Source: Escherichia coli (GTDB lineage Bacteria; Pseudomonadota; Gammaproteobacteria; Enterobacterales; Enterobacteriaceae). From it: 64,000 bases of DNA. A program made the translations under genes and the position numbers. Under the pieces are notes generated by a model that saw only the letters and a program-made list of their open reading frames with translations, was not told the DNA's origin and ran no database searches. How positions within the stretch are numbered: position 1 is the first letter of the stretch; the number at the start of each line of letters is the position of its first letter. Where the stretch lies: NCBI RefSeq assembly GCF_016903815.1, contig NZ_CP069973.1; one strand, given 5' to 3'. Shown piece by piece: positions 40,452 to 52,171 of the stretch.

Positions 40452-41163
40452 GTGCACAGAAAACCCCCAGCTAGGCTGGGGGTTCCGGAAAGCTTTCAGC
40501 TTTGAGCCAGTTATTAAAACCCCTTTTGATTTGTTAAAACACCTTGCGGTCTGGCAACTGCAAGTGTCAAACAAGAAATCAAAAGGGGGTCCCAATGGGG
40601 AACGAAAAGAGCTTAGCGCACACCCGATGGAACTGTAAATATCACATAGTTTTTGCGCCAAAATACCGAAGACAGGTGTTCTACAGAGAGAAGCGTAGAG
40701 CAATAGGCAGTATTTTGAGAAAGCTGTGTGAGTGGAAAAGCGTACGGATTCTGGAAGCTGAATGCTGTGCAGATCATATCCATATGCTTGTGGAGATCCC
40801 GCCCAAAATGAGCGTATCCGGGTTTATGGGATATCTGAAAGGGAAAAGCAGTCTGATGCTTTACGAGCAGTTTGGTGATTTGAAATTCAAATACAGGAAC
40901 AGGGAGTTCTGGTGCAGAGGGTACTACGTCGATACAGTGGGTAAGAACACGGCGAAGATACAGGATTACATAAAGCACCAGCTTGAAGAGGATAAAATGG
41001 GAGAGCAGTTATCGATTCCCTATCCGGGCAGCCCGTTTACGGGCCGTAAGTAACGAAGTTGGATGCAAATGTCAGATCGTGTGCGCCTGTTAGGGCGCGG
41101 CTGGTAAGAGAGCCTTATAGGCGCATTTGAAAAACCTCCGGCTATGCCGGAGGATATTTATTA
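40452..41163 (+). mobile_element. IS200-like element, copy B, same orientation as copy A
   Basis: Near-identical to 23701..24413 (only a few substitutions seen); the same terminal hairpins are present. Confidence 0.85.
40595..41053 (+). CDS. tnpA: IS200-type HUH (Y1) transposase TnpA (152 aa)
   Basis: Track ORF 40544..41053; the internal ATG gives MGNEKSLAHTRWNCKYHIVF..., with an amino-acid sequence identical to copy A. Confidence 0.9.
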   Translation: MGNEKSLAHTRWNCKYHIVFAPKYRRQVFYREKRRAIGSILRKLCEWKSVRILEAECCADHIHMLVEIPPKMSVSGFMGYLKGKSSLMLYEQFGDLKFKYRNREFWCRGYYVDTVGKNTAKIQDYIKHQLEEDKMGEQLSIPYPGSPFTGRK

Positions 41164-41328: not shown

Positions 41329-42039
41329 ATGGCGGAGAATCAATCCACCGTAGAAAATGCAAAAGAGAAACTGGATCGGTGGTTGAAAGATGGCATCACC
41401 ACGCCGGGTGGAAAACTCCCTTCAGAAAGAGAGCTGGGAGAACTGCTGGGCATTAAACGTATGACGCTGCGCCAGGCGTTGTTGAACCTCGAGGCAGAAT
41501 CCAAAATCTTCCGTAAGGATCGTAAGGGGTGGTTCGTGACCCAGCCGCGATTTAATTACAGTCCGGAGCTGTCAGCGAGCTTTCAGCGGGCCGCAATTGA
41601 GCAAGGACGAGAGCCTTCTTGGGGGTTTACCGAGAAAAACCGTACCAGCGATATTCCCGAGACGCTCGCGCCACTGATTGCAGTGACACCATCAACTGAA
41701 CTCTATCGCATCACCGGCTGGGGGGCGCTGGAAGGACATAAAGTTTTCTATCACGAAACATATATTAATCCTGAAGTTGCTCCGGGTTTTATTGAACAAC
41801 TTGAAAACCACTCATTTTCTGCAGTCTGGGAAAAGTGCTACCAGAAAGAGACGGTAGTAAAAAAATTGATTTTCAAACCCGTCAGAATGCCGGGCGATAT
41901 CAGCAAGTATCTTGGCGGTTCTGCGGGTATGCCAGCGATCTTAATTGAAAAGCATCGCGCCGACCAGCAAGGCAATATTGTCCAGATAGATATTGAATAT
42001 TGGCGATTTGAGGCCGTAGACCTCATCATTAATCTGTAG
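41329..42039 (+). CDS. yihL: YihL, GntR-family (HTH plus UTRA-like) transcriptional regulator, 236 aa
   Basis: Translation MAENQSTVENAKEKLDRWLKDGITTPGGKLPSERELGELLGIKRMTLRQALLNLEAESKIFRKDRKGWFV.... Confidence 0.88.
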   Translation: MAENQSTVENAKEKLDRWLKDGITTPGGKLPSERELGELLGIKRMTLRQALLNLEAESKIFRKDRKGWFVTQPRFNYSPELSASFQRAAIEQGREPSWGFTEKNRTSDIPETLAPLIAVTPSTELYRITGWGALEGHKVFYHETYINPEVAPGFIEQLENHSFSAVWEKCYQKETVVKKLIFKPVRMPGDISKYLGGSAGMPAILIEKHRADQQGNIVQIDIEYWRFEAVDLIINL

Positions 42040-42046
42040 GTGTTTT

Positions 42047-43027
42047 ATGGTGACAATAAATAACGCAAGAAAGATTCTACAACGTGTCGACACTCTTCCT
42101 CTTTATTTACATGCTTATGCCTTTCATTTAAATATGCGGCTGGAAAGAGTGTTGCCTGCTGATTTACTTGATATCGCAAGTGAAAATAATCTACGTGGCG
42201 TCAAAATCCATGTTCTGGACGGCGAGCGTTTTTCTCTTGGTAATATGGACGATAAAGAACTCTCTGCCTTTGGGGATAAAGCCCGCCGTCTGAACCTTGA
42301 TATTCATATTGAAACCAGCGCTTCAGATAAGGCATCTATTGACGAAGCCGTCGCCATTGCGTTGAAAACTGGGGCATCGTCCGTACGTTTTTATCCACGT
42401 TATGAAGGTAATTTGCGCGACGTATTATCGATCATCGCTAACGACATTGCCTATGTACGGGAAACGTATCAGGACAGCGGCCTGACTTTTACGATCGAAC
42501 AGCATGAAGATTTAAAAAGCCATGAGTTGGTGTCGCTGGTCAAAGAAAGTGAGATGGAATCTCTTTCCTTACTGTTTGATTTTGCGAACATGATCAATGC
42601 AAATGAGCATCCCATCGACGCTTTAAAAACGATGGCACCGCATATTACCCAGGTCCATATCAAAGATGCCTTGATCGTTAAAGAAGAGGGTGGCCTGGGT
42701 CATAAAGCCTGTATTTCAGGTCAGGGTGATATGCCGTTCAAAGCGTTATTAACGCACCTTATATGCCTGGGTGATGATGAGCCGCAGGTGACGGCATATG
42801 GCCTGGAAGAAGAGGTTGATTACTATGCGCCGGCGTTCCGCTTTGAAGACGAAGATGATAATCCGTGGATCTCTTATCGCCAGATGAGTGAAACACCATT
42901 GCCAGAAAATCATTTACTGGATGCGCGGTTACGTAAAGAAAAAGAAGATGCAATTAATCAGATAAATCATGTGCGTAACGTACTACAACAAATCAAACAA
43001 GAGGCAAACCATCTTCTGAACCACTAA
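42047..43027 (+). CDS. yihM: YihM, putative sugar phosphate isomerase/epimerase (TIM barrel), 326 aa
   Basis: Translation MVTINNARKILQRVDTLPLYLHAYAFHLNMRLER...; gene order yihL-yihM-yihN as in K-12. Confidence 0.85.
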   Translation: MVTINNARKILQRVDTLPLYLHAYAFHLNMRLERVLPADLLDIASENNLRGVKIHVLDGERFSLGNMDDKELSAFGDKARRLNLDIHIETSASDKASIDEAVAIALKTGASSVRFYPRYEGNLRDVLSIIANDIAYVRETYQDSGLTFTIEQHEDLKSHELVSLVKESEMESLSLLFDFANMINANEHPIDALKTMAPHITQVHIKDALIVKEEGGLGHKACISGQGDMPFKALLTHLICLGDDEPQVTAYGLEEEVDYYAPAFRFEDEDDNPWISYRQMSETPLPENHLLDARLRKEKEDAINQINHVRNVLQQIKQEANHLLNH

Positions 43028-43128
43028 TAAGTTTTAACTCATACGCAGTTAATAAAACCATTCGATATGAATGGTCGGTATCTTATTGCCTTTAAAACAG
43101 TGATTTTAAAAATCGCTTAGGGGATGTT

Positions 43129-44394
43129 ATGCTCACGAAAAAGAAATGGGCGTTATTTAGTCTATTAACATTGTGTGGCGGTACAATTTATAAATTACCG
43201 TCGCTGAAAGATGCGTTTTATATCCCGATGCAGGAATATTTCCATTTGACCAATGGTCAAATTGGTAATGCTATGTCGGTAAACTCATTTGTCACGACAG
43301 TGGGCTTTTTTCTGTCTATTTATTTTGCCGATAAACTACCGCGCAGATACACCATGTCATTCTCACTCATTGCGACAGGATTACTGGGTGTTTATTTGAC
43401 GACAATGCCGGGGTATTGGGGCATCCTCTTTGTCTGGGCGCTATTTGGCGTTACTTGCGACATGATGAACTGGCCGGTCTTGCTCAAGTCGGTAAGTCGA
43501 TTGGGCAATAGCGAACAACAAGGTCGGTTGTTTGGCTTCTTCGAAACAGGGCGTGGCATTGTCGATACCGTGGTGGCATTTTCTGCGTTGGCAGTATTTA
43601 CCTGGTTTGGCAGTGGCTTATTGGGTTTTAAAGCAGGCATCTGGTTCTATTCCCTTATTGTGATTGCCGTAGGCATTATCATTTTCTTTGTTCTGAATGA
43701 CAAAGAAGAGGCACCGTCCGTTGAGGTGAAAAAAGAAGACGGAGCATCGAAAAACACCAGTATGACCTCGGTGCTGAAAGACAAAACTATCTGGCTTATC
43801 GCTTTCAACGTCTTCTTCGTTTACGCGGTTTACTGTGGCCTGACATTCTTCATTCCATTCCTGAAAAACATCTATCTATTGCCCGTTGCGCTGGTGGGGG
43901 CTTACGGCATCATTAACCAATACTGTCTGAAAATGATTGGTGGACCGATTGGTGGCATGATTTCAGATAAGATCCTGAAATCGCCGAGTAAATATCTATG
44001 CTACACCTTTATCATCAGTACCGCTGCGCTCGTACTGTTGATTATGCTGCCGCACGAAAGTATGCCGGTATATTTAGGGATGGCATGTACGCTGGGCTTT
44101 GGCGCGATAGTCTTTACACAGCGAGCCGTATTTTTTGCACCTATCGGCGAAGCAAAAATTGCTGAAAATAAAACAGGCGCGGCGATGGCGTTGGGTAGCT
44201 TTATTGGTTACGCCCCGGCGATGTTCTGCTTCAGTCTGTATGGCTACATTCTGGATTTAAATCCGGGGATTATTGGCTACAAAATTGTGTTTGGCATTAT
44301 GGCCTGCTTCGCATTCTGTGGTGCGGTGGTTTCCGTAATGCTGGTTAAGCGTATTAGCCAACGTAAGAAAGAGATGCTGGCGGCTGAAGCTTGA
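43129..44394 (+). CDS. yihN: YihN, MFS transporter, 421 aa
   Basis: Translation MLTKKKWALFSLLTLCGGTIYKLPSLKDAFYIPMQEYF... with about 12 predicted hydrophobic segments. Confidence 0.88.
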   Translation: MLTKKKWALFSLLTLCGGTIYKLPSLKDAFYIPMQEYFHLTNGQIGNAMSVNSFVTTVGFFLSIYFADKLPRRYTMSFSLIATGLLGVYLTTMPGYWGILFVWALFGVTCDMMNWPVLLKSVSRLGNSEQQGRLFGFFETGRGIVDTVVAFSALAVFTWFGSGLLGFKAGIWFYSLIVIAVGIIIFFVLNDKEEAPSVEVKKEDGASKNTSMTSVLKDKTIWLIAFNVFFVYAVYCGLTFFIPFLKNIYLLPVALVGAYGIINQYCLKMIGGPIGGMISDKILKSPSKYLCYTFIISTAALVLLIMLPHESMPVYLGMACTLGFGAIVFTQRAVFFAPIGEAKIAENKTGAAMALGSFIGYAPAMFCFSLYGYILDLNPGIIGYKIVFGIMACFAFCGAVVSVMLVKRISQRKKEMLAAEA

Positions 44395-44400
44395 TTAATG

Positions 44401-44478
44401 GCCGGATGTGGCTTAATCCGGCCAACGGAAACCGTATCAACCGTAGGCCGGATAAGGCGTTTTCGCCGCATCCGGCAG
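44401..44478. repeat. REP palindromic units between yihN and ompL
   Basis: gccggatgtggcttaatccggcc ... gtaggccggataaggcgttttcgccgcatccggca. Confidence 0.65.
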
Positions 44479-44485
44479 TTTTACA

Positions 44486-45178
44486 TCAGAAGAAATACTT
44501 CGTCCCGATACGAATCTGGTTTTGCTCGCGGTGGTACGGTTCGACATTACGATCTAACCAGCGTAATTCGAAATAAGGGAGCCAGTGTTCATTAATGCGA
44601 TAACGGAAGGTGTTAGTGATTTCCCAGTGATGATCTTTTCCATTGCTGCTATTAAAGTCATTTACTCGCATGAAGTAATGTGGTTCAAATGTATAGGAGA
44701 ATTTCTCGGTGATTTTAAAATTCCAGTAGGTGCCAACTTCATAGGTGTCGTTATTATCCAATTCGCCGTTCAAATCTGTAGAGCTGTAATTATTATGGTT
44801 ATAGCGATTACGCACCGTCAGGTTAAACCACGGAGTAAATTTGTAGTTAACATCCAGATAAACGGCACCACCCGAACCGATACTCTTGTCATTAATTAAG
44901 CCACCGGGCTGGATGGTTAATTTATCGGTTGGTTTAAATAAAGGATACCAACCTTCAATTTCATTATAGCCATGTTTGAGTTCATCTTCTCGCTGAAAGG
45001 TGTAGGTATTGGTTAACATAATACCCGCGCCCATATCGAAGTTATAACCCACGCGTAGCATAACTTCGCCCTGATCGGAGGCGAGATTATATGCCTCCCT
45101 GTTTTCGACGTATGCGCCAGCAAATACCGAGGCAGAGGTCAGAGAGGATAATAGAATTATTGCATTAATCTTTTTCAT
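44486..45178 (-). CDS. ompL: Outer membrane porin OmpL (230 aa)
   Basis: Track ORF 44486..45244; the internal start gives MKKINAIILLSSLTSASVFAGAYVENREAYN... and the C-terminal ...RIGTKYFF beta-barrel signature. Confidence 0.9.
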   Translation of the reverse strand: MKKINAIILLSSLTSASVFAGAYVENREAYNLASDQGEVMLRVGYNFDMGAGIMLTNTYTFQREDELKHGYNEIEGWYPLFKPTDKLTIQPGGLINDKSIGSGGAVYLDVNYKFTPWFNLTVRNRYNHNNYSSTDLNGELDNNDTYEVGTYWNFKITEKFSYTFEPHYFMRVNDFNSSNGKDHHWEITNTFRYRINEHWLPYFELRWLDRNVEPYHREQNQIRIGTKYFF

Positions 45179-45244
45179 AATAAGTCCATTTTTAAACGTA
45201 GGGAGGCCGCCACCCACCAGGATGGAAATAGCGGCTATTGACAT

Positions 45245-46648
45245 TTATAACGTTACGGAAGCCGTTTTTTCTTCTGTCGCCATCTCTTTATTTTTGCGTT
45301 GGTTGATTTCCTCAATAATCAATGCAAACCGTTTTTCATTGAGTGTGTAAAAGAATCCCATCGTCAATGCAGCAATAATTGCCAGTGCACAAGGCCAGAT
45401 AAAAATGAGCTGACGCAAACCCTGTAATGTCGCATCACTTTGCGCGATGTTGGGAACATAACCGATTTGCGTCAGCATAATGCCTGGCAAGAAGCCAGCA
45501 AGTGCGGCAGAAATTTTACGAAAGAAGGTATAACCGGTATAAACAGAACCTTCGGCACGAATACCGGTTTTCCATTCACCGTAATCTACGGTATCTGGCA
45601 CCAGTGCCCAGTTCAGGCTGTTTACAAAGGCCGTGCCAAAAAAGGCGACACAAGAGAACATGACGAAAGTGAAAGAGTTACTTCCCCAGAAATAATTCAG
45701 GATATCACCAACCGCCCATAGCACCATGCCAGCTAAATAAACCTGTTTTTTACCAAAACATTTTACAGTTAATGGCACCAGTAATACGCCGACGAGGATA
45801 CATCCCATACTGAAAAATCCCATCCACGACAATAAATTAATATCATTCAGCACATACTGGGTGTAATAGACCTGAATCGCCAGTTTGATATTAAATGCCG
45901 CCAGGGTACACAGGTTAGCAATGCACAAAACCAGCAATGGCGGATTACGAAATATCGCGCAAAAAGATTTGAGAATACTGGCTTTATGTCCGGTTGGCGT
46001 CGTGTCCACATAATGCTCTTTGACGCCTCTGTAGCACAGCATCATAAAAATAAAGCCACCAATGGAGAACATCAGTGCCGCGCAGGCATAACCGACGGTG
46101 GAGTCAGAAAAAAGCGACTGCAACGGAATAAACGCCACGGTACAAATCAATAGCCCTATGGTTGCACCACCCTGGCGGTAAGCCGCGAGCTGCGCGCGCT
46201 CATTCGGGTTTTTGGTAATTGCCGGGATCATCGCACCATACGAGCAGTTCATCAGACTGTATGAAAGTCCAAACATCATAAACAGTGCGGTGGCAATCGT
46301 CGTTTTAACCGGCAAACTAAAGGTGGTGGCGATAAACTGGAGCGTTGCAATTAACGCCGCCGGAACCGCTGCATATAAAATAAAGGGACGAAATTTGCCT
46401 TTAGGCCCAATATTTTTCCGCGAGTCGAGTAAAAATCCGGTGAGCATATCGGTAAACGCGGTAAAAAACTTCGCCACCAGAAAGATAATCCCGCCATAGT
46501 AAGCAGGCATCCCTAATTCATCGGTATAAAATTTGAGGAGATACAGAGTACCGATGCAGAGCATTAAATTCGAACCGACGTCGCCCATACCATAGGCGAT
46601 TTTTTCCCGCAGATTCAGTCTTAATGTCAGTGGATTATGGTCAGACAT
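45245..46648 (-). CDS. yihO: YihO, GPH-family (MelB-like) sulfoquinovose importer, 467 aa
   Basis: Translation MSDHNPLTLRLNLREKIAYGMGDVGSNLMLCIGTLYLLKFYTDELGMPAYYGGIIFL.... Confidence 0.92.
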   Translation of the reverse strand: MSDHNPLTLRLNLREKIAYGMGDVGSNLMLCIGTLYLLKFYTDELGMPAYYGGIIFLVAKFFTAFTDMLTGFLLDSRKNIGPKGKFRPFILYAAVPAALIATLQFIATTFSLPVKTTIATALFMMFGLSYSLMNCSYGAMIPAITKNPNERAQLAAYRQGGATIGLLICTVAFIPLQSLFSDSTVGYACAALMFSIGGFIFMMLCYRGVKEHYVDTTPTGHKASILKSFCAIFRNPPLLVLCIANLCTLAAFNIKLAIQVYYTQYVLNDINLLSWMGFFSMGCILVGVLLVPLTVKCFGKKQVYLAGMVLWAVGDILNYFWGSNSFTFVMFSCVAFFGTAFVNSLNWALVPDTVDYGEWKTGIRAEGSVYTGYTFFRKISAALAGFLPGIMLTQIGYVPNIAQSDATLQGLRQLIFIWPCALAIIAALTMGFFYTLNEKRFALIIEEINQRKNKEMATEEKTASVTL

Positions 46649-46690
46649 AATCACTCCTTATAACGCCCCGCAGGGCGTTGTTTATTATAA

Positions 46691-48076
46691 TTACGCCGTG
46701 CGTTTACGGGCTTCTATCTCTTCAACAATGCGGACGTACATCTTCTCGTTCAGACTGTAGAAGCAACCCATCGCCACAATGGTGACTACTGCCAGTGCGC
46801 TTGGGTAGATGAAGATCAGCTGGCGCAACCCTTCAATGGTGTGGTCAGCCTGTGCGACGTTTGGCACATAGCCGATTTGCGTCAGCATCCAGCCTGGGAA
46901 GAAACCTGCCAGCGCCTGAGATACTTTGCGAAAGAAGGTGAAGCCGGTGTAGACCGTACCTTCCGAACGCACACCGGTGCGCCACTCGCCGTACTCGACG
47001 GTGTCGGAAACCAGCGCCCAGTTCAGGCTGTTAACAAACGCCGAGCCGAAGAATGCCAGGCAGGAGAACGCCACAAAGCTGACCGAGCCGCCGCCGAAGA
47101 AATAGTTGAGCAGATCGCCCAGCACCCAAATCAGCAGGCCGCCGATATAGACCTTCTTCTTACCAAAACGTCTGACTGCGCCAGGCATCAGGAACACGCC
47201 GATGAAAATACAGCCCATGCTGAAAAATCCCATATACGACAACAGGATGGGATCGTTAAGTACGTACTGGGTGTAATAGACCTGGATGGCGAGCTTGACG
47301 TTAAACGCCCCTAAAGTGCAGAGGTTGGCAATGCACAGAATGAACAGCGGGCGGTTACCGGCAATTGCGCGGAAAGATTGCAACAGGCCTGGCTTTTGCG
47401 CCGGATTGGTAGGTTGGGTTTCGACATAACGCTCTTTCACGCCCGAGTAGCAGATCCACATAAACAGCAGGCCGAACAGTGAAAACAGCGTGGCAGCGAA
47501 GATATAGCCAATTTGCTGATTACCTTCGATAAGATTCATAACCGGCACGAATCCCACCGTACACAGCAGTAAGCCCAATGTAGCGCCACCCTGACGCCAT
47601 GCTGCCAGCGATGCGCGTTCGTTGGGGTTTTTGGTAATAGCGGGGACCATTGCGCCGTAGGAGCAGTTCATCATGCTGAAAAACAGCCCGTAGAGCATAA
47701 ACAGAATAGTGGCCATCACCGTTTTACCGGTGACATCAAACGGTGTGCCGACAAAGTTGGCGATCGCCAGCAGAGTGACCGGGAATGATGCATACAGAAT
47801 AAAAGGGCGGAATTTGCCTTTTGGACCGATCTTGCGCCGGGAATCGAGCATGATGCCGGTACCCATATCGGTAAAGGCGGTAAAGAATTTCGAGATCAAA
47901 AAGATAATGCCGCCATAGGTGCCGGGCAGCCCCAGAACGTCGGTATAAAACTTCAAAAGATAAAGCGTGCCGATATCCAGCAGGATGTTAGAGGCCAGAT
48001 CGCCGATACCGTAAGAGAGTTTCTCTTTAAAGGGCAGACGTAAAGTAGCCGGATCTTCCGTTGTGATGTGACTCAT
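46691..48076 (-). CDS. yihP: YihP, GPH-family transporter, paralog of YihO
   Basis: Track ORF 46691..48109; the internal start gives MSHITTEDPATLRLPFKEKLSYGIGDLASNILLDIGTLYLLKFYTDVLG.... Confidence 0.92.
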   Translation of the reverse strand: MSHITTEDPATLRLPFKEKLSYGIGDLASNILLDIGTLYLLKFYTDVLGLPGTYGGIIFLISKFFTAFTDMGTGIMLDSRRKIGPKGKFRPFILYASFPVTLLAIANFVGTPFDVTGKTVMATILFMLYGLFFSMMNCSYGAMVPAITKNPNERASLAAWRQGGATLGLLLCTVGFVPVMNLIEGNQQIGYIFAATLFSLFGLLFMWICYSGVKERYVETQPTNPAQKPGLLQSFRAIAGNRPLFILCIANLCTLGAFNVKLAIQVYYTQYVLNDPILLSYMGFFSMGCIFIGVFLMPGAVRRFGKKKVYIGGLLIWVLGDLLNYFFGGGSVSFVAFSCLAFFGSAFVNSLNWALVSDTVEYGEWRTGVRSEGTVYTGFTFFRKVSQALAGFFPGWMLTQIGYVPNVAQADHTIEGLRQLIFIYPSALAVVTIVAMGCFYSLNEKMYVRIVEEIEARKRTA

Positions 48077-48121
48077 CGTTGTTCTCCCTTTGCCCGTGAG
48101 TTTCCCCACGGGCGGACGTGA

Positions 48122-50158
48122 TTAGATGCTTTTTAACGACGCGAACAGTGCCGCCCATTCGCTATCGGCGCGATAAAAGACCGGCGGCTTGCCGATGGGC
48201 GCATTAACGGTCACTTCCCCGCCCCGGAATGCTTCACCCGTCCAGGCATGGACCCAGTTATCCTCCGGCAGATAGAGCGTCCAGTCGCTACGGCCTTCTT
48301 CATGCACCGGAGCGACCAGAATGTCGCGGCCTAACAGGTACTGATATTTCAGGGTGTAGGTCTGCGCGTCGTCTTCGTAATGCAGGAACAGCGGGCGCAT
48401 GACCGGCAGACCGGACTTCGCATTCAGCGCGACGGCCTCTTTCAGATAAGGTTTCAGGGTGGTGAAGACGGTGGTCATACGGGCGAAATGGGCGATGGTT
48501 TCCGCGTCGCCGTCAAACTGCCAGTTGTCGCCAGGACGGTTACCTTCGTGGGTGCGCATCATCGGCGTGAAGGCGCTGAAATCGCACCAGCGCAGCAGCA
48601 GCTCTTTGCTGCGCTTCATCTCAAACAGGGTGGTGTAACCGCCAATGTCGCTGTGATGCAGGCCATGTCCGGTCATTGCCAGCGACAGCGCCGCCGGGAC
48701 AACCGACGCCAGGCCATCGTCGAGACTCCAGTCGACGTTCTGGTCGCCCGCCCACATCATGGTGGAGTATTTCTGGCTACCGGTAGAACCGGCGCGCATA
48801 AAGAAGAGGATCTCGCCGAGCTTGCCCGTTTCTTCAAGGGCTTCGTAGTTACATTTCGCCCACAGCGCAGGCCAGGCGTTATGCATAATTTCCGCGCTGA
48901 CGCCGTTATGCAGGTACGTGTCGGTGGGCAGATACTCGCCGAAGTCAGCCATCCAGCCGCCGCAGCCAAGTTCAATCATGTTCTTTTTGATCACTTCCTT
49001 GAACCAGGCGTAGGCTTCTGGATTGGTGAGGTCGACAACGCCGCCATAGAACTCGCCAAACTCCACCAGATAGTCGCCGCCAGAGGCATCTTTTGCCAGA
49101 TAACCGCGCTTTGCCGCCTCTTCGCAGAGATCTTTATCGCTGGCTACATACGGGTTGATATAGGCCAGGAACTGCACGCCCTCTTTGTTCCACTGCTTAA
49201 TACGTGAGTCCAGTTGCGGATAGTTTTCGCTGTTCCACTTCCAGTTCCACATTACGCGTTTGCCAAAAGAGGTCATACGGATCCCGGACCAGTCCTGCGC
49301 CCAGATGCCGTTAACCTTCACACCCGCGTTACGCATGGTGTCCAGTTTCTTCTGACACACTTCCGTCCCGCCCTGAATGCCGAGCGTTACCCCGTCATAA
49401 ATCCAGTCGGGCAGTTCTGGCTGGCGTCCCAGCAGGGCAGTTAATTTTTCCAGCAGGGAGATGTATGTATCAGCACATTCAAAACGCAGCGTTGCTTTGT
49501 CTTCCCACAGCGCCAGTTCATGGTATTCCGGGGCGCTAAAGTCGAAGTTCATGTAGCAACTGTTATCAACATGGCAGTAATACTTCTGCGTGCTGACAAA
49601 CGTAGGCTGTGGGAAGAAAGTCCAGTAATAGTCGCCGCCCGCGTTCTCTTTGCAGTCGGCCTGCCAGGTGACATAGGTTTGCTTGTTGCGACCAACGCCT
49701 TGTTCACTGGTCCATAGCGGGAACGGTTTGCCGCGCAGATCGAAGTAGGAAAACTGTTCGCCGCAGCCGTAGATATGGTCCTCTGGTTGAGCGGCAAGGC
49801 GCAGCCAGATGCGGTTGTGGTTAAGGTTGTCGTTTTGTAGTTCCAGCAATAAACGGCCCTGATCGTCGGCAGAGATATTCAGCGTGGCGCTAATGTCAGA
49901 ACCACGGCTGAAATGGATTAACCAACCATCCGGTGACTGGCTGACGATGGCGTCGGTAAGCGCAATTTTCTCCTGTAGTTTATCTTTAATGCTGAAATTG
50001 CCGCGGAACATATCGATATCCGCAATACCTGAACCAATCCATAAACAAGGATTATCTTTGCTATGGGTTAAAATAAGACGCTGTTGAAAATGTAGGGTAA
50101 AACAGTCGTTATTCTGATGAAACTGAAAATCTGGTAATTGTGGGCGTGGCGTATCCAT
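48122..50158 (-). CDS. yihQ: Sulfoquinovosidase YihQ (GH31), 678 aa
   Basis: Translation MDTPRPQLPDFQFHQNNDCFTLHFQQRLILTHSKDNPCLWIGSG... matches YihQ. Confidence 0.95.
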   Translation of the reverse strand: MDTPRPQLPDFQFHQNNDCFTLHFQQRLILTHSKDNPCLWIGSGIADIDMFRGNFSIKDKLQEKIALTDAIVSQSPDGWLIHFSRGSDISATLNISADDQGRLLLELQNDNLNHNRIWLRLAAQPEDHIYGCGEQFSYFDLRGKPFPLWTSEQGVGRNKQTYVTWQADCKENAGGDYYWTFFPQPTFVSTQKYYCHVDNSCYMNFDFSAPEYHELALWEDKATLRFECADTYISLLEKLTALLGRQPELPDWIYDGVTLGIQGGTEVCQKKLDTMRNAGVKVNGIWAQDWSGIRMTSFGKRVMWNWKWNSENYPQLDSRIKQWNKEGVQFLAYINPYVASDKDLCEEAAKRGYLAKDASGGDYLVEFGEFYGGVVDLTNPEAYAWFKEVIKKNMIELGCGGWMADFGEYLPTDTYLHNGVSAEIMHNAWPALWAKCNYEALEETGKLGEILFFMRAGSTGSQKYSTMMWAGDQNVDWSLDDGLASVVPAALSLAMTGHGLHHSDIGGYTTLFEMKRSKELLLRWCDFSAFTPMMRTHEGNRPGDNWQFDGDAETIAHFARMTTVFTTLKPYLKEAVALNAKSGLPVMRPLFLHYEDDAQTYTLKYQYLLGRDILVAPVHEEGRSDWTLYLPEDNWVHAWTGEAFRGGEVTVNAPIGKPPVFYRADSEWAALFASLKSI

Positions 50159-50265
50159 AAATAATCTCCATAGAGTATAAAGCTAATATTTCATGCCATC
50201 CTGTTGTTACAGGTTTCATTAATTAAAGAATGTGTGCGGGTATAAATTAAAACCCGCATAAGTGA

Positions 50266-51141
50266 TTATTTACTTTCTTCAGCCCGGCGGATTGCCGCCA
50301 CTTTTTTACCAAATGCCAGTTGCAGTATAACTAACAAGGTAAAAGGAGGCAGAAGCGCGGCAGCAGCGGGAATTCCCAGCGCGCCTTTTATCAACATAGA
50401 ACCGGAGGCAATCAGCAACAAAAAGACCATCACACGGAACACTTTGACTGAAATGCGTTTATGCACATATTGTCCAACCAGTGAACCGAGGATCATGGTG
50501 GGAATACAAAACAGCACCAGTTTAAAGATAGAAACAGTCAAAATTCCGCTGGTCGCCAGCCCGCCGATCACCGCGATGTTGTTTGCGGTGAAGAAAGCGT
50601 TCAGAGTGCCACGAAATGCCGCCGGGCCTAAGTTACGCAGCATACCGTAGATAACCATCGGCGGTCCGTTGGTTGAGAACGCCGCGCCTAATGCGCCAGC
50701 TACTGCGCCGATAGGTGCGGCGATCCAGTTACGGTCATAAATCGGCAGGCGAGGAATAAACATGCTGTAAAACGAGTAAAGGATAAGGAATCCGCCTAAG
50801 CCCACTTTCATAAAATGGTCGGGTAAATACGACAGCGCATATAAACCGACGGGTATTCCCAGAAACGAGAAAATAATCAGTACCATTGCCGATCGCCAAT
50901 CCGTTTCTTTACGTGACAGCCAGGTGGCGTACAAGGCGGTCGCGGTGCCGACAATCACCGAGAGCGGAGTTGCCATTTTTACGGGGAGCATTAACGTGAC
51001 GAGCGGCATAGTGGTTAAACCACCGCCAAATCCCGCGCATATCCCCACAAAGGTATAAAGAAACATTAACGCGATAACGATACATACCACGCTTGTTTCC
51101 ACCATGGCCCCATCCGGCGAAAATAACGTAAAAAAGTCCAT
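50266..51141 (-). CDS. TauE/SafE (DUF81) family anion permease-like membrane protein, 291 aa; not in the K-12 yih cluster as I recall it
   Basis: Translation MDFFTLFSPDGAMVETSVVCIVIALMFLYTFVGICAGFGGGLTTMPLV...; highly hydrophobic with about 8 predicted helices and the GxGGG helix motif typical of TauE/SafE/YfcA proteins; sits between yihQ and yihR on the same strand. Confidence 0.8.
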   Translation of the reverse strand: MDFFTLFSPDGAMVETSVVCIVIALMFLYTFVGICAGFGGGLTTMPLVTLMLPVKMATPLSVIVGTATALYATWLSRKETDWRSAMVLIIFSFLGIPVGLYALSYLPDHFMKVGLGGFLILYSFYSMFIPRLPIYDRNWIAAPIGAVAGALGAAFSTNGPPMVIYGMLRNLGPAAFRGTLNAFFTANNIAVIGGLATSGILTVSIFKLVLFCIPTMILGSLVGQYVHKRISVKVFRVMVFLLLIASGSMLIKGALGIPAAAALLPPFTLLVILQLAFGKKVAAIRRAEESK

Positions 51142-51201
51142 AATATTTCCTGTTGTGTAAATACAACCCTAAACAATGATCTCGTTCTTTTCTTAATAAA
51201 A

Positions 51202-52113
51202 TTAATTGTGCTGCCCGTGAATATTAAAAAACAGGCGGTGCGTTTTTCCTGGTTCCAGTAATAATAAGTCGATACCTGAATTAAAGGCGTTAGGCGGGCA
51301 ACTCATAGGTTCAACTGCCAGTCCCTGACGCTGTAATTTTTCACCGCTATAAACCTGCACCCAGGGTTGATCGGAACAGAGGCTCACCGAAAGCGCCTGT
51401 TGTGGATGGGTAATGGTTATTTCCCACAGATCATTAGCGGTTTTAAAGGTATGGTCTATTTTTGTCGCGGCTATTTTTGTCGCCCGCGTGAAATTTAAAT
51501 TCAGCTCATCAACGTGGTGAAGCGTTGTCGGATTTGCGTGCTCATCGACGGCATAAACCTGTTCTGCCGGAAGCTGGAAAAGATAGTCATCAACAGATGT
51601 TAAGTTGCAGGTTAAATAAGGATGAATACCCACACCATAAGGTGCGGTCACAGTACCAATATTCTGGCTTGCGATCTCAACGGAAAGACCCGTGCGTGCA
51701 TTGAGCGAATAAACAACTTGTGAAGCCAGCATAAACGGATAGCCGTAACTGGGCGGCAGAAAAGCTGTCAGGGTAACGCTGGTGGCGGTTAATTCGCTAA
51801 TTTGCCAGTCACGCCAGGCAAGCAGCCCGTGAATAGCGGCTTTTGAACTATGTTCATTAATGGGTAACTGATAGTCCTGCCCCTGATAGCGATAACAGCC
51901 GTTGGCGATCCGGTTCGGCCACGGAATAAGCACTTTACCCAGATGCGCCAGCGGCATCTCTTCGGGTTTGTGCGGGATGACTAAATGACAACCCTGAAAG
52001 GTTAATTCAGCCAGACCAGCACCAACCGTCACGATAGTCGCGTGATAATCCCCCGCGGCAAGTGAAACGGTTTGTCCACTGCAATGCATGTTGGTGATTT
52101 GCATACGAGGCAC
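51202..52113 (-). CDS. yihR: YihR, aldose-1-epimerase family (sulfoquinovose mutarotase)
   Basis: Translation MPRMQITNMHCSGQTVSLAAGDYHATIVTVGAGLAELTFQGCHLVIPHKPEEMPLAHLGK...; the start may instead be the internal MQITNM. Confidence 0.9.
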   Translation of the reverse strand: MPRMQITNMHCSGQTVSLAAGDYHATIVTVGAGLAELTFQGCHLVIPHKPEEMPLAHLGKVLIPWPNRIANGCYRYQGQDYQLPINEHSSKAAIHGLLAWRDWQISELTATSVTLTAFLPPSYGYPFMLASQVVYSLNARTGLSVEIASQNIGTVTAPYGVGIHPYLTCNLTSVDDYLFQLPAEQVYAVDEHANPTTLHHVDELNLNFTRATKIAATKIDHTFKTANDLWEITITHPQQALSVSLCSDQPWVQVYSGEKLQRQGLAVEPMSCPPNAFNSGIDLLLLEPGKTHRLFFNIHGQHN

Positions 52114-52171
52114 CTTTATTGAATAACGACATACCCGGCATGTAGCCTGATATGCCGTTATTTCAGCTCAG

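Follow-up and report, generated by a model that had tools for sequence, protein, structure and literature searches.

The yihO and yihP genes lie side by side on the minus strand of a 64,000-nucleotide stretch of an Escherichia coli genome (assembly GCF_016903815.1, contig NZ_CP069973.1; this whole stretch is the window, and positions are counted from its first nucleotide). They encode two permeases of the GPH family that descend from one tandem duplication older than the spread of the yih cluster, which serves sulfoquinovose catabolism by the sulfo-EMP (sulfo-Embden-Meyerhof-Parnas) pathway, and both copies are under purifying selection. In the explanation that best fits the pair, a MelB-like permease gene of the GPH family would have been duplicated before the cluster spread through the Enterobacterales, purifying selection would have kept both copies as H+-coupled carriers of sulfonated substrates, and the copies would have divided import and export between them; taken as a whole, this account stands at an even balance of probability. 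The pair is already published and is a well-annotated part of the reference sulfoquinovose pathway, and by itself adds nothing new. Within that pathway, transport has been characterised the least, and the label of YihP as exporter of 2,3-dihydroxypropane-1-sulfonate (DHPS) has been copied for more than 10 years. Clusters with a TauE-family gene in place of yihP, single-gene hybrids of the two paralogs, and three clade-fixed hydroxyl-to-Phe changes in the pocket are modest new by-products that offer cheap experimental handles.

Gene names and coordinates were taken from the RefSeq annotation of an E. coli genome that is 100% identical over 44400-50200 (strain 7/2, with others equally identical). 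The minus-strand open reading frames 45245-46654 and 46691-48109 correspond to the two RefSeq genes:

45245-46648, minus strand: yihO, encoding a 467-amino-acid (aa) GPH-family permease (RefSeq annotation, TIGR00792, PF13347)
46691-48076, minus strand: yihP, encoding a 461-aa GPH-family permease, paralog of yihO (RefSeq annotation, TIGR00792, PF13347)

The first-pass annotation of the window had described two adjacent paralogous permeases on the same strand, and the description holds. The proteins of 467 and 461 aa align by BLASTP over their full length with 296 of 456 positions identical (65%), 81% positives, 3 gaps and a score of 625 bits, which excludes the low overall identity that had been named as speaking against a duplication; the 65% figure has already been published (bioRxiv 10.1101/2021.11.10.468170). 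The repeat also shows in the DNA, where 300 nucleotides (nt) match at 72% identity and 247 nt at 71%, spaced 1410-1419 apart. The motifs quoted as shared are present in both proteins (YihO/YihP residue): LYLLKFYTD at 35/38, GGIIFL at 52/55, KFFTAFTDM at 60/63 and GPKGKFRPFILYA at 81/84. All four fall within residues 35-93, and the blocks had been called N-terminal. The blocks are real and the N-terminal limit is wrong, as the C-terminal half is more identical than the N-terminal half (68% vs 62%), so that conservation confined to the N terminus was rejected. The longest identical block, KLAIQVYYTQYVLND, starts at residue 255/261, and further identical runs of 9-14 residues are spread along the whole length.

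The duplication had also been called old, which is borne out by synonymous saturation and by two ortholog clades that stand in tandem in 61 loci. Codon comparison of yihO with yihP gives 66% nucleotide identity, 43% at third positions, a saturated proportion of synonymous differences (pS) of 0.73, and a nonsynonymous divergence (dN) of 0.25. Each gene compared with its K-12 counterpart has a low ratio of nonsynonymous to synonymous divergence (dN/dS), ~0.04 for yihO and ~0.02 for yihP, indicating strong purifying selection on both. A scan for orthologs with one genome per species returned 72 loci; in 61 of these, YihP and YihO orthologs are encoded in tandem downstream of yihQ. These loci belong to the Enterobacterales (Citrobacter, Salmonella, Klebsiella, Enterobacter, Pantoea, Rahnella, Yersinia, Serratia, Hafnia, Budvicia and Pectobacterium) and to one metagenome-assembled genome (MAG) of Anaerobiospirillum. 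Mean identity is 85% within YihP, 82% within YihO and 68% between the clades. Neighbor-joining trees, with MelB and a distant GPH protein as outgroups and one chimeric sequence (L046) excluded, group all YihP with 78% bootstrap support, all YihO with 70%, and the pair against the outgroups with 99%. The first tree, which included L046, supported the two clades at 8-11% only, rising to 70-94% after its removal, and the weak initial support is attributed to the chimera.

Continuing gene conversion between the neighbours as the reason for the likeness of the shared blocks, or a recent duplication, might be suggested by the position of the genes in tandem and by the length of the identical peptides but is exceedingly improbable, because every 40-codon window is saturated at synonymous sites (pS 0.52-0.89), identical residues share their codon in just 26-66% of cases per window, no exact nucleotide run is longer than 20 nt, the GC content at third codon positions (GC3) is unequal (0.50 for yihO vs 0.66 for yihP), and orthologs cluster by copy and not by genome. 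The saturation in all windows rules this candidate out, and with no window of low synonymous divergence and no exact match above 20 nt, the shared blocks are held by protein-level selection. The GC3 gap recurs elsewhere, with yihP the higher in 58 of 60 other genomes and ompL lower still; expression level and separate recombination history are possibilities.

Both proteins belong to the GPH:cation symporter family (Transporter Classification 2.A.2), with TIGR00792 scores of 529.4 bits for YihO and 536.0 bits for YihP (cut-off 231) and scores of 268 and 262 bits against Pfam MFS_2 (PF13347, cut-off 27). Among solved structures, that of MelB is nearest by sequence (residues 11-439, E = 5e-40). 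YihO was also modelled with AlphaFold2 from 41 orthologs (pLDDT 78.5, pTM 0.73); the model has 12 long transmembrane (TM) helices together with a loop helix and a C-terminal helix, and its best match in the PDB is again MelB (TM-score 0.84-0.86), followed by MFSD2A. The 12-helix MFS fold of the model probably extends to YihP, which aligns with YihO at 65% identity without large gaps.

The cation and sugar sites of MelB were mapped by alignment onto 65 YihO and 66 YihP sequences, the roles of the matching MelB residues, including Asp59, being taken from published work (PMC8329300). The carboxylate of helix II that corresponds to Asp59 is D67 in YihO and D70 in YihP, and is invariant in all 65 YihO and all 66 YihP sequences. 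Also invariant in both paralogs are the equivalents of Lys377 (K378/K384), Thr373, Arg141 and Arg363. A MelB-type Na+ site is absent, as Asp55 and Asn58 are both replaced by Thr in all orthologs of both paralogs; this is a subtype trait, the Na+ ligands being no requirement of the family, and it predicts H+ over Na+ coupling. The sugar ligands of MelB are changed in both proteins (Lys18 to Ser, Asp19 to Asn, Asp124 to Asn, Trp128 to Gly, Arg149 to Gln, Trp342 to Asn), and Val376 has become an invariant Arg that adjoins the Lys to form an Arg-Lys pair in helix XI. A pocket that has lost carboxylates and gained a basic pair would suit an anionic sulfonate carried with H+, and the Arg-Lys pair of both paralogs could bind the sulfonate.

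Comparison of the two clades points to closely related ligands. There are 270 columns conserved at ≥90% in both, of which 252 agree between the clades and 18 are fixed for a different residue in each; the ligands of YihO and YihP are accordingly expected to be close, with the YihP pocket less polar and bulkier. The clade-fixed pairs (YihO/YihP) include Y130/F133 (MelB Tyr120), T339/S345 (Thr338), Y373/F379 (Gln372) and S376/F382. Three of them, Y130/F133, Y373/F379 and S376/F382, are hydroxyl-to-Phe changes in the pocket region of YihP, and Gln372 of MelB lies ≤5 Å from C6 of the sugar, the sulfonate-bearing carbon in sulfoquinovose. Helix XI holds 6 of the 18 differences (p = 0.0014 uncorrected, 0.07 after scan correction), and the enrichment of differences in the pocket has a Fisher p of 0.068.

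The first-pass annotation had further suggested subfunctionalisation into import and export. This is a proposal of the published literature with experimental backing for YihO only, and the comparative tests presented here, made on sequences, are compatible with it and do not establish it. Deletion of yihO abolishes growth of K-12 on sulfoquinovose (PMC6278857), so YihO is needed for uptake and YihP is no substitute. In K-12, sulfoquinovose acts as an inducer of ompL, yihO and yihP (PMC12608037). YihP itself "has not been experimentally characterized" (bioRxiv 10.1101/2021.11.10.468170). The exporter label has been repeated up to a 2026 review, and no growth phenotype of a yihP deletion on sulfoquinovose was found in the literature. 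The assignment of YihP as DHPS exporter was reportedly made by inference by Denger in 2014. DHPS corresponds to the sulfonate-bearing C4-C6 part of sulfoquinovose, and a paralog that keeps the sulfonate subsite while losing hydrogen-bond donors is a chemically plausible DHPS carrier. YihO would, on the published genetics, be the sulfoquinovose importer, and YihP, with the same pocket scaffold and three Phe changes, would carry DHPS, a smaller molecule, outward, a role that in this strain would overlap with that of a TauE-family protein. Export of DHPS is the most probable function of YihP and also the least certain step of the explanation, a tentative assignment that falls just short of even. 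It ranks above the possibility that both proteins are importers, which in turn ranks above exchange.

Comparative evidence for DHPS export by YihP is weak, and a number of considerations weigh against it. GPH members are typically uptake symporters, and YihP keeps every coupling residue of YihO. No transport experiment on YihP, and no transport assay for YihO, was found in the literature. The window carries yihP and the TauE-family gene together, which would be redundant if both products export. Loss of yihP in loci with TauE is limited to 2 of 17, against 0 of 48 without it (Fisher ~0.065, phylogeny uncorrected), and the enrichment of fixed differences in the pocket and helix XI is suggestive only. 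Finally, Salmonella bongori has no TauE in its cluster, where the only GPH gene is a hybrid.

The TauE-family gene and two other genes of the same-strand run are placed as follows:

48122-50158, minus strand: yihQ, sulfoquinovosidase, directly upstream of yihP (annotation)
50266-51141, minus strand: gene that lies between yihR and yihQ and encodes a membrane protein of the TauE/SafE (TSUP) family (PF01925, 121.8 bits; annotation)
44486-45178, minus strand: ompL, KdgM-family outer-membrane porin, the final gene of the same-strand run (NF007434, 473 bits; PF06178, 302 bits; annotation)

The TauE/SafE-family protein exceeds the PF01925 cut-off of 32.6 bits over residues 23-248 and is a candidate organosulfonate exporter. 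An earlier count of three transporters for one pathway is right for the inner membrane (YihO, YihP, TauE), and the porin OmpL makes four in the same-strand run. The gene is polymorphic in E. coli by presence and absence: of 5426 complete genomes, 1281 carry it in the yihQ-yihR interval, which is 50159-51201 in the window, O157:H7 among them. In K-12 it is absent, its place in the yihQ-yihR spacer being taken by an unrelated 151-nt AT-rich filler with no tauE remnant by which gain could be told from loss within E. coli alone. A 2025 survey of yih cassette variants makes no mention of the gene (PMC12608037). Across genera there are two alternative slots, yihQ-tauE-yihP and yihR-tauE-yihQ, which implies either independent insertions or rearrangement inside the cluster; the loci divide into L013, L019, L026, L034, L035, L041-L043 and L049 on the one hand and L002, L003, L006, L021, L031 and L055 on the other.

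Seventy loci cover the region. YihP and YihO are encoded in 48, both with TauE in 15, YihO with TauE only in 2, and a hybrid in 1; the rest are three Chimaeribacter loci with a YihP-like gene and a distant GPH gene, and L058, whose sequence ends right after yihP. A clean absence of yihP is limited to the two TauE-carrying clusters, in Lelliottia nimipressuralis (L048, 8972-11386) and an Enterobacter MAG (L071, 8978-11425). Both read yihQ-tauE-yihO, with ~80 nt between tauE and yihO, no remnant of yihP, and yihQ kept. Replacement of YihP by TauE fits this arrangement, which argues against YihP as the sole route for sulfoquinovosyl glycosides. To look for relaxed constraint on YihP in the presence of TauE, deviations from the consensus were compared; they are higher in TauE-carrying loci for both YihP and YihO, with a YihP/YihO ratio of 0.76 vs 0.40 (p = 0.013) measured against a consensus of mostly TauE-less lineages and with phylogeny uncontrolled.

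The strongest alternative, which is nevertheless rather unlikely, is that both paralogs are importers: YihO would take up free sulfoquinovose, YihP would take up sulfoquinovosyl glycerol or other sulfoquinovose glycosides for cytoplasmic YihQ, and DHPS would leave via TauE or an unlinked carrier. Both proteins are members of a family of glycoside:cation symporters with identical coupling residues, yihP always adjoins yihQ, and the identity of 252 of the 270 conserved columns implies closely related ligands. The fixed T339/S345 difference, at MelB Thr338, lies near the aglycone or second sugar, and the window, like roughly one in four of the clusters sampled, has a dedicated TauE-type candidate exporter. 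Yet yihQ is kept in the two yihP-less clusters, where glycosides would need a way in without YihP, and the K-12 cluster has no TauE although the pathway is reported to end in excreted DHPS. The three Phe changes, which make the YihP pocket less polar and bulkier, are also no obvious fit to a larger polyhydroxylated glycoside. Import by YihO and export by YihP remains the preferred reading after this comparison.

A further alternative arises from single genes in which the two paralogs are fused. A protein search with YihP retrieved proteins of E. coli, E. albertii and S. bongori ~75% identical to YihP, in which the N-terminal third is YihP and the rest YihO. A single hybrid of the N-terminal ~150 aa of YihP with the C-terminal part of YihO has taken the place of the pair independently in five or more lineages, namely two of E. 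coli and one each of E. albertii, S. bongori and Symbiopectobacterium, Candidatus Symbiopectobacterium endolongispinus having the same fusion type. The genomic context in four records is one hybrid gene between yihQ and ompL. The hybrids, and the blocks of the window that correspond to their junctions, are as follows:

L076, 6001-7413: hybrid of E. albertii, CP117606.1, TauE present
L077, 6001-7428: hybrid of S. bongori, CP035676.1, with no TauE and no second GPH gene in the cluster
L078 and L080, 5001-6413: hybrids of E. coli, in a draft of the K-12-like TauE-less haplotype and in read assemblies of the TauE-carrying haplotype
L046, 9947-11422: hybrid, the chimeric sequence excluded from the trees
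47612-47674, minus strand: crossover block of yihP, nt 403-465, encoding MNCSYGAMVPAITKNPNERA, where TM IV ends and the IV-V loop follows
46193-46255, minus strand: partner block of the crossover in yihO, encoding MNCSYGAMIPAITKNPNERA (nucleotide alignment and breakpoints)

Breakpoints fall at nt 459-465, 403-417, 426-430 and 411-423 of the hybrids, and at roughly 363-470 in S. bongori. All known ones are within the block MNCSYGAM-x-PAITKNPNERA where TM IV ends, the TM IV/V junction, hybrids with other breakpoints not having been searched for systematically. The crossover block has the highest local nucleotide identity between yihP and yihO (0.83 over 60 nt). Three other windows reach 0.82, and the longer exact runs of 20, 17 and 17 nt are outside it, which suggests that selection for a workable splice point may add to the recombination preference. 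One of the E. coli hybrids agrees with K-12 yihP throughout its left half (153 of 153 informative sites) and with K-12 yihO throughout its right half (321 of 321), indicating a very recent fusion. None of the 5426 complete E. coli genomes has a hybrid, as judged by junction-spanning DNA queries ranked by identity, which gave no full-length match at ≥95%; coverage was uninformative, since megablast extended through the paralogous half at ~85% identity. The reciprocal YihO::YihP junction likewise gave no match above 95% in the complete E. coli genomes.

Recurrent fusion of TM I-IV of YihP to TM V-XII of YihO could mean that one GPH protein handles both sulfoquinovose entry and DHPS exit, and that the division into YihO importer and YihP exporter is wrong; the chances of this are small. 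By analogy, one or both proteins might work mainly as precursor/product exchangers that bring sulfoquinovose in and DHPS out by electroneutral antiport, the two copies being kinetic or specificity variants, a scheme that is improbable to the same degree. The GPH member LacS has a lactose/galactose exchange mode, and since DHPS is a fragment of sulfoquinovose, one sulfonate subsite could serve both. The intact cluster of S. bongori is the key case for exchange, the hybrid being the sole carrier there with no TauE, and the E. albertii and S. bongori hybrids have dN/dS of 0.02-0.06 against parental-type genes. Were exchange to be the mode of transport, the five clustered TM IV/V breakpoints would mark the sole permissive splice point between two functional modules. 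The growth defect of the yihO deletion in K-12 stands against it, as YihP cannot do the whole job, and the division between importer and exporter is still to be preferred.

The pair is embedded in the yih cluster, to which it is assigned by the annotation of the identical genome and by the same gene order in 60+ loci of other genera, the order yihQ-yihP-yihO being kept across related loci. In the annotation, the same-strand run reads yihU, yihT, yihS, yihR, the TauE/SafE-family gene, yihQ, yihP, yihO and ompL, flanked by divergent neighbours, yihV and csqR at one end and yihL, yihM and yihN at the opposite end. Two spacers within the run have a common design:

46649-46690, minus strand: yihP-yihO spacer, 42 nt, with the GC-rich hairpin AACGCCC-UGCG-GGGCGUU, then AAGGAG and the yihO start codon
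48077-48121, minus strand: yihQ-yihP spacer, 45 nt, in which a GC-rich hairpin is followed by GGGAG and by the start codon of yihP

Both carry a stable GC-rich hairpin without a U tail directly 5′ of the next Shine-Dalgarno sequence, with folds of -23.7 kcal/mol (z = -4.1) for yihP-yihO and -23.2 kcal/mol (z = -3.8) for yihQ-yihP. Lacking a U tail, the hairpin of the yihP-yihO spacer is no intrinsic terminator on the gene strand, and the terminator scan marks it on the opposite strand only. Over 44300-52300, promoter-like sites were at chance level and the gene strand had no convincing terminator. The two intercistronic hairpins may serve mRNA processing or stability.

Other observations concern the neighbourhood and related clusters. 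Between typA and yihL lies a copy of the insertion sequence IS200C (40462-41053), with tnpA at 40595-41053 (NF033573, 147.7 bits) and a 5′ RNA element at 40462-40585 that matches Rfam STnc490 at 146 bits; no insertion sequence is annotated between these genes in K-12. Clusters of Yersinia, Serratia, Hafnia and Chimaeribacter keep yihU, yihV, yihQ and the transporters. In place of yihT, yihR and yihS they have a class II fructose-bisphosphate aldolase, an aldose 1-epimerase of another kind and a fucose-isomerase-like protein, and are thereby mosaics with enzymes of the sulfo-EMP2 type (L045, 2889-6278; L050, L052, L053, L056, L057, L062, L065, L067 and L068). The upstream GPH paralog of clusters of this type is intermediate between the YihP and YihO consensus. 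Damaged copies also occur: an E. coli YihP variant of 399 aa (P0020) with an internal deletion of ~60 residues is present on 39 contigs, S. enterica subsp. diarizonae has a split yihO and Yersinia aldovae a broken copy of each gene (among L006, 9992-11422, and L072), and yihP of Shigella flexneri is frameshifted (PMC12330013).

Comparison with K-12, the closest known system, finds 99.4% and 99.1% amino acid identity for YihO (b3876) and YihP (b3877), equal lengths, and the same order ompL-yihO-yihP-yihQ. The K-12 cassette differs in lacking the TauE-family gene between yihQ and yihR, and its alleles differ by a mosaic of synonymous divergence (dS; 41329-59108 of the window vs L075): ~0.045 for the flanking yihLMN and dtd, 0.064 for yihO, 0.14-0.19 for yihQ, yihT and csqR, 0.23 for yihP and yihS, and 0.40 for ompL. 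Such a mosaic points to recombination among divergent yih haplotypes within E. coli. MelB, the melibiose:Na+/Li+/H+ symporter and prototype of the GPH family (PDB 4M64, 7L16/7L17), is like both paralogs in family model, 12-TM fold and the kept equivalents of Asp59, Arg141, Thr373, Lys377 and Arg363, and differs in that identity is only ~25% and in that its Na+ and sugar ligands are missing from YihO and YihP.

With the sulfite/organosulfonate exporters of the TauE/SafE (TSUP, PF01925) family, the window protein shares a match to PF01925 over 226 residues, and it differs in having no NCBIfam equivalog. The sulfo-transaldolase (sulfo-TAL) clusters of Firmicutes contain one glycoside symporter and a TauE-type predicted exporter (PMC7491151). 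These are SftA, an MFS glycoside symporter and predicted sulfoquinovose importer, and SftE, a predicted sulfolactate/DHPS exporter, and their layout is that of the two yihP-less clusters of Lelliottia and Enterobacter. The window differs from this system by its extra GPH paralog, YihP, the roles in both systems being predictions only.

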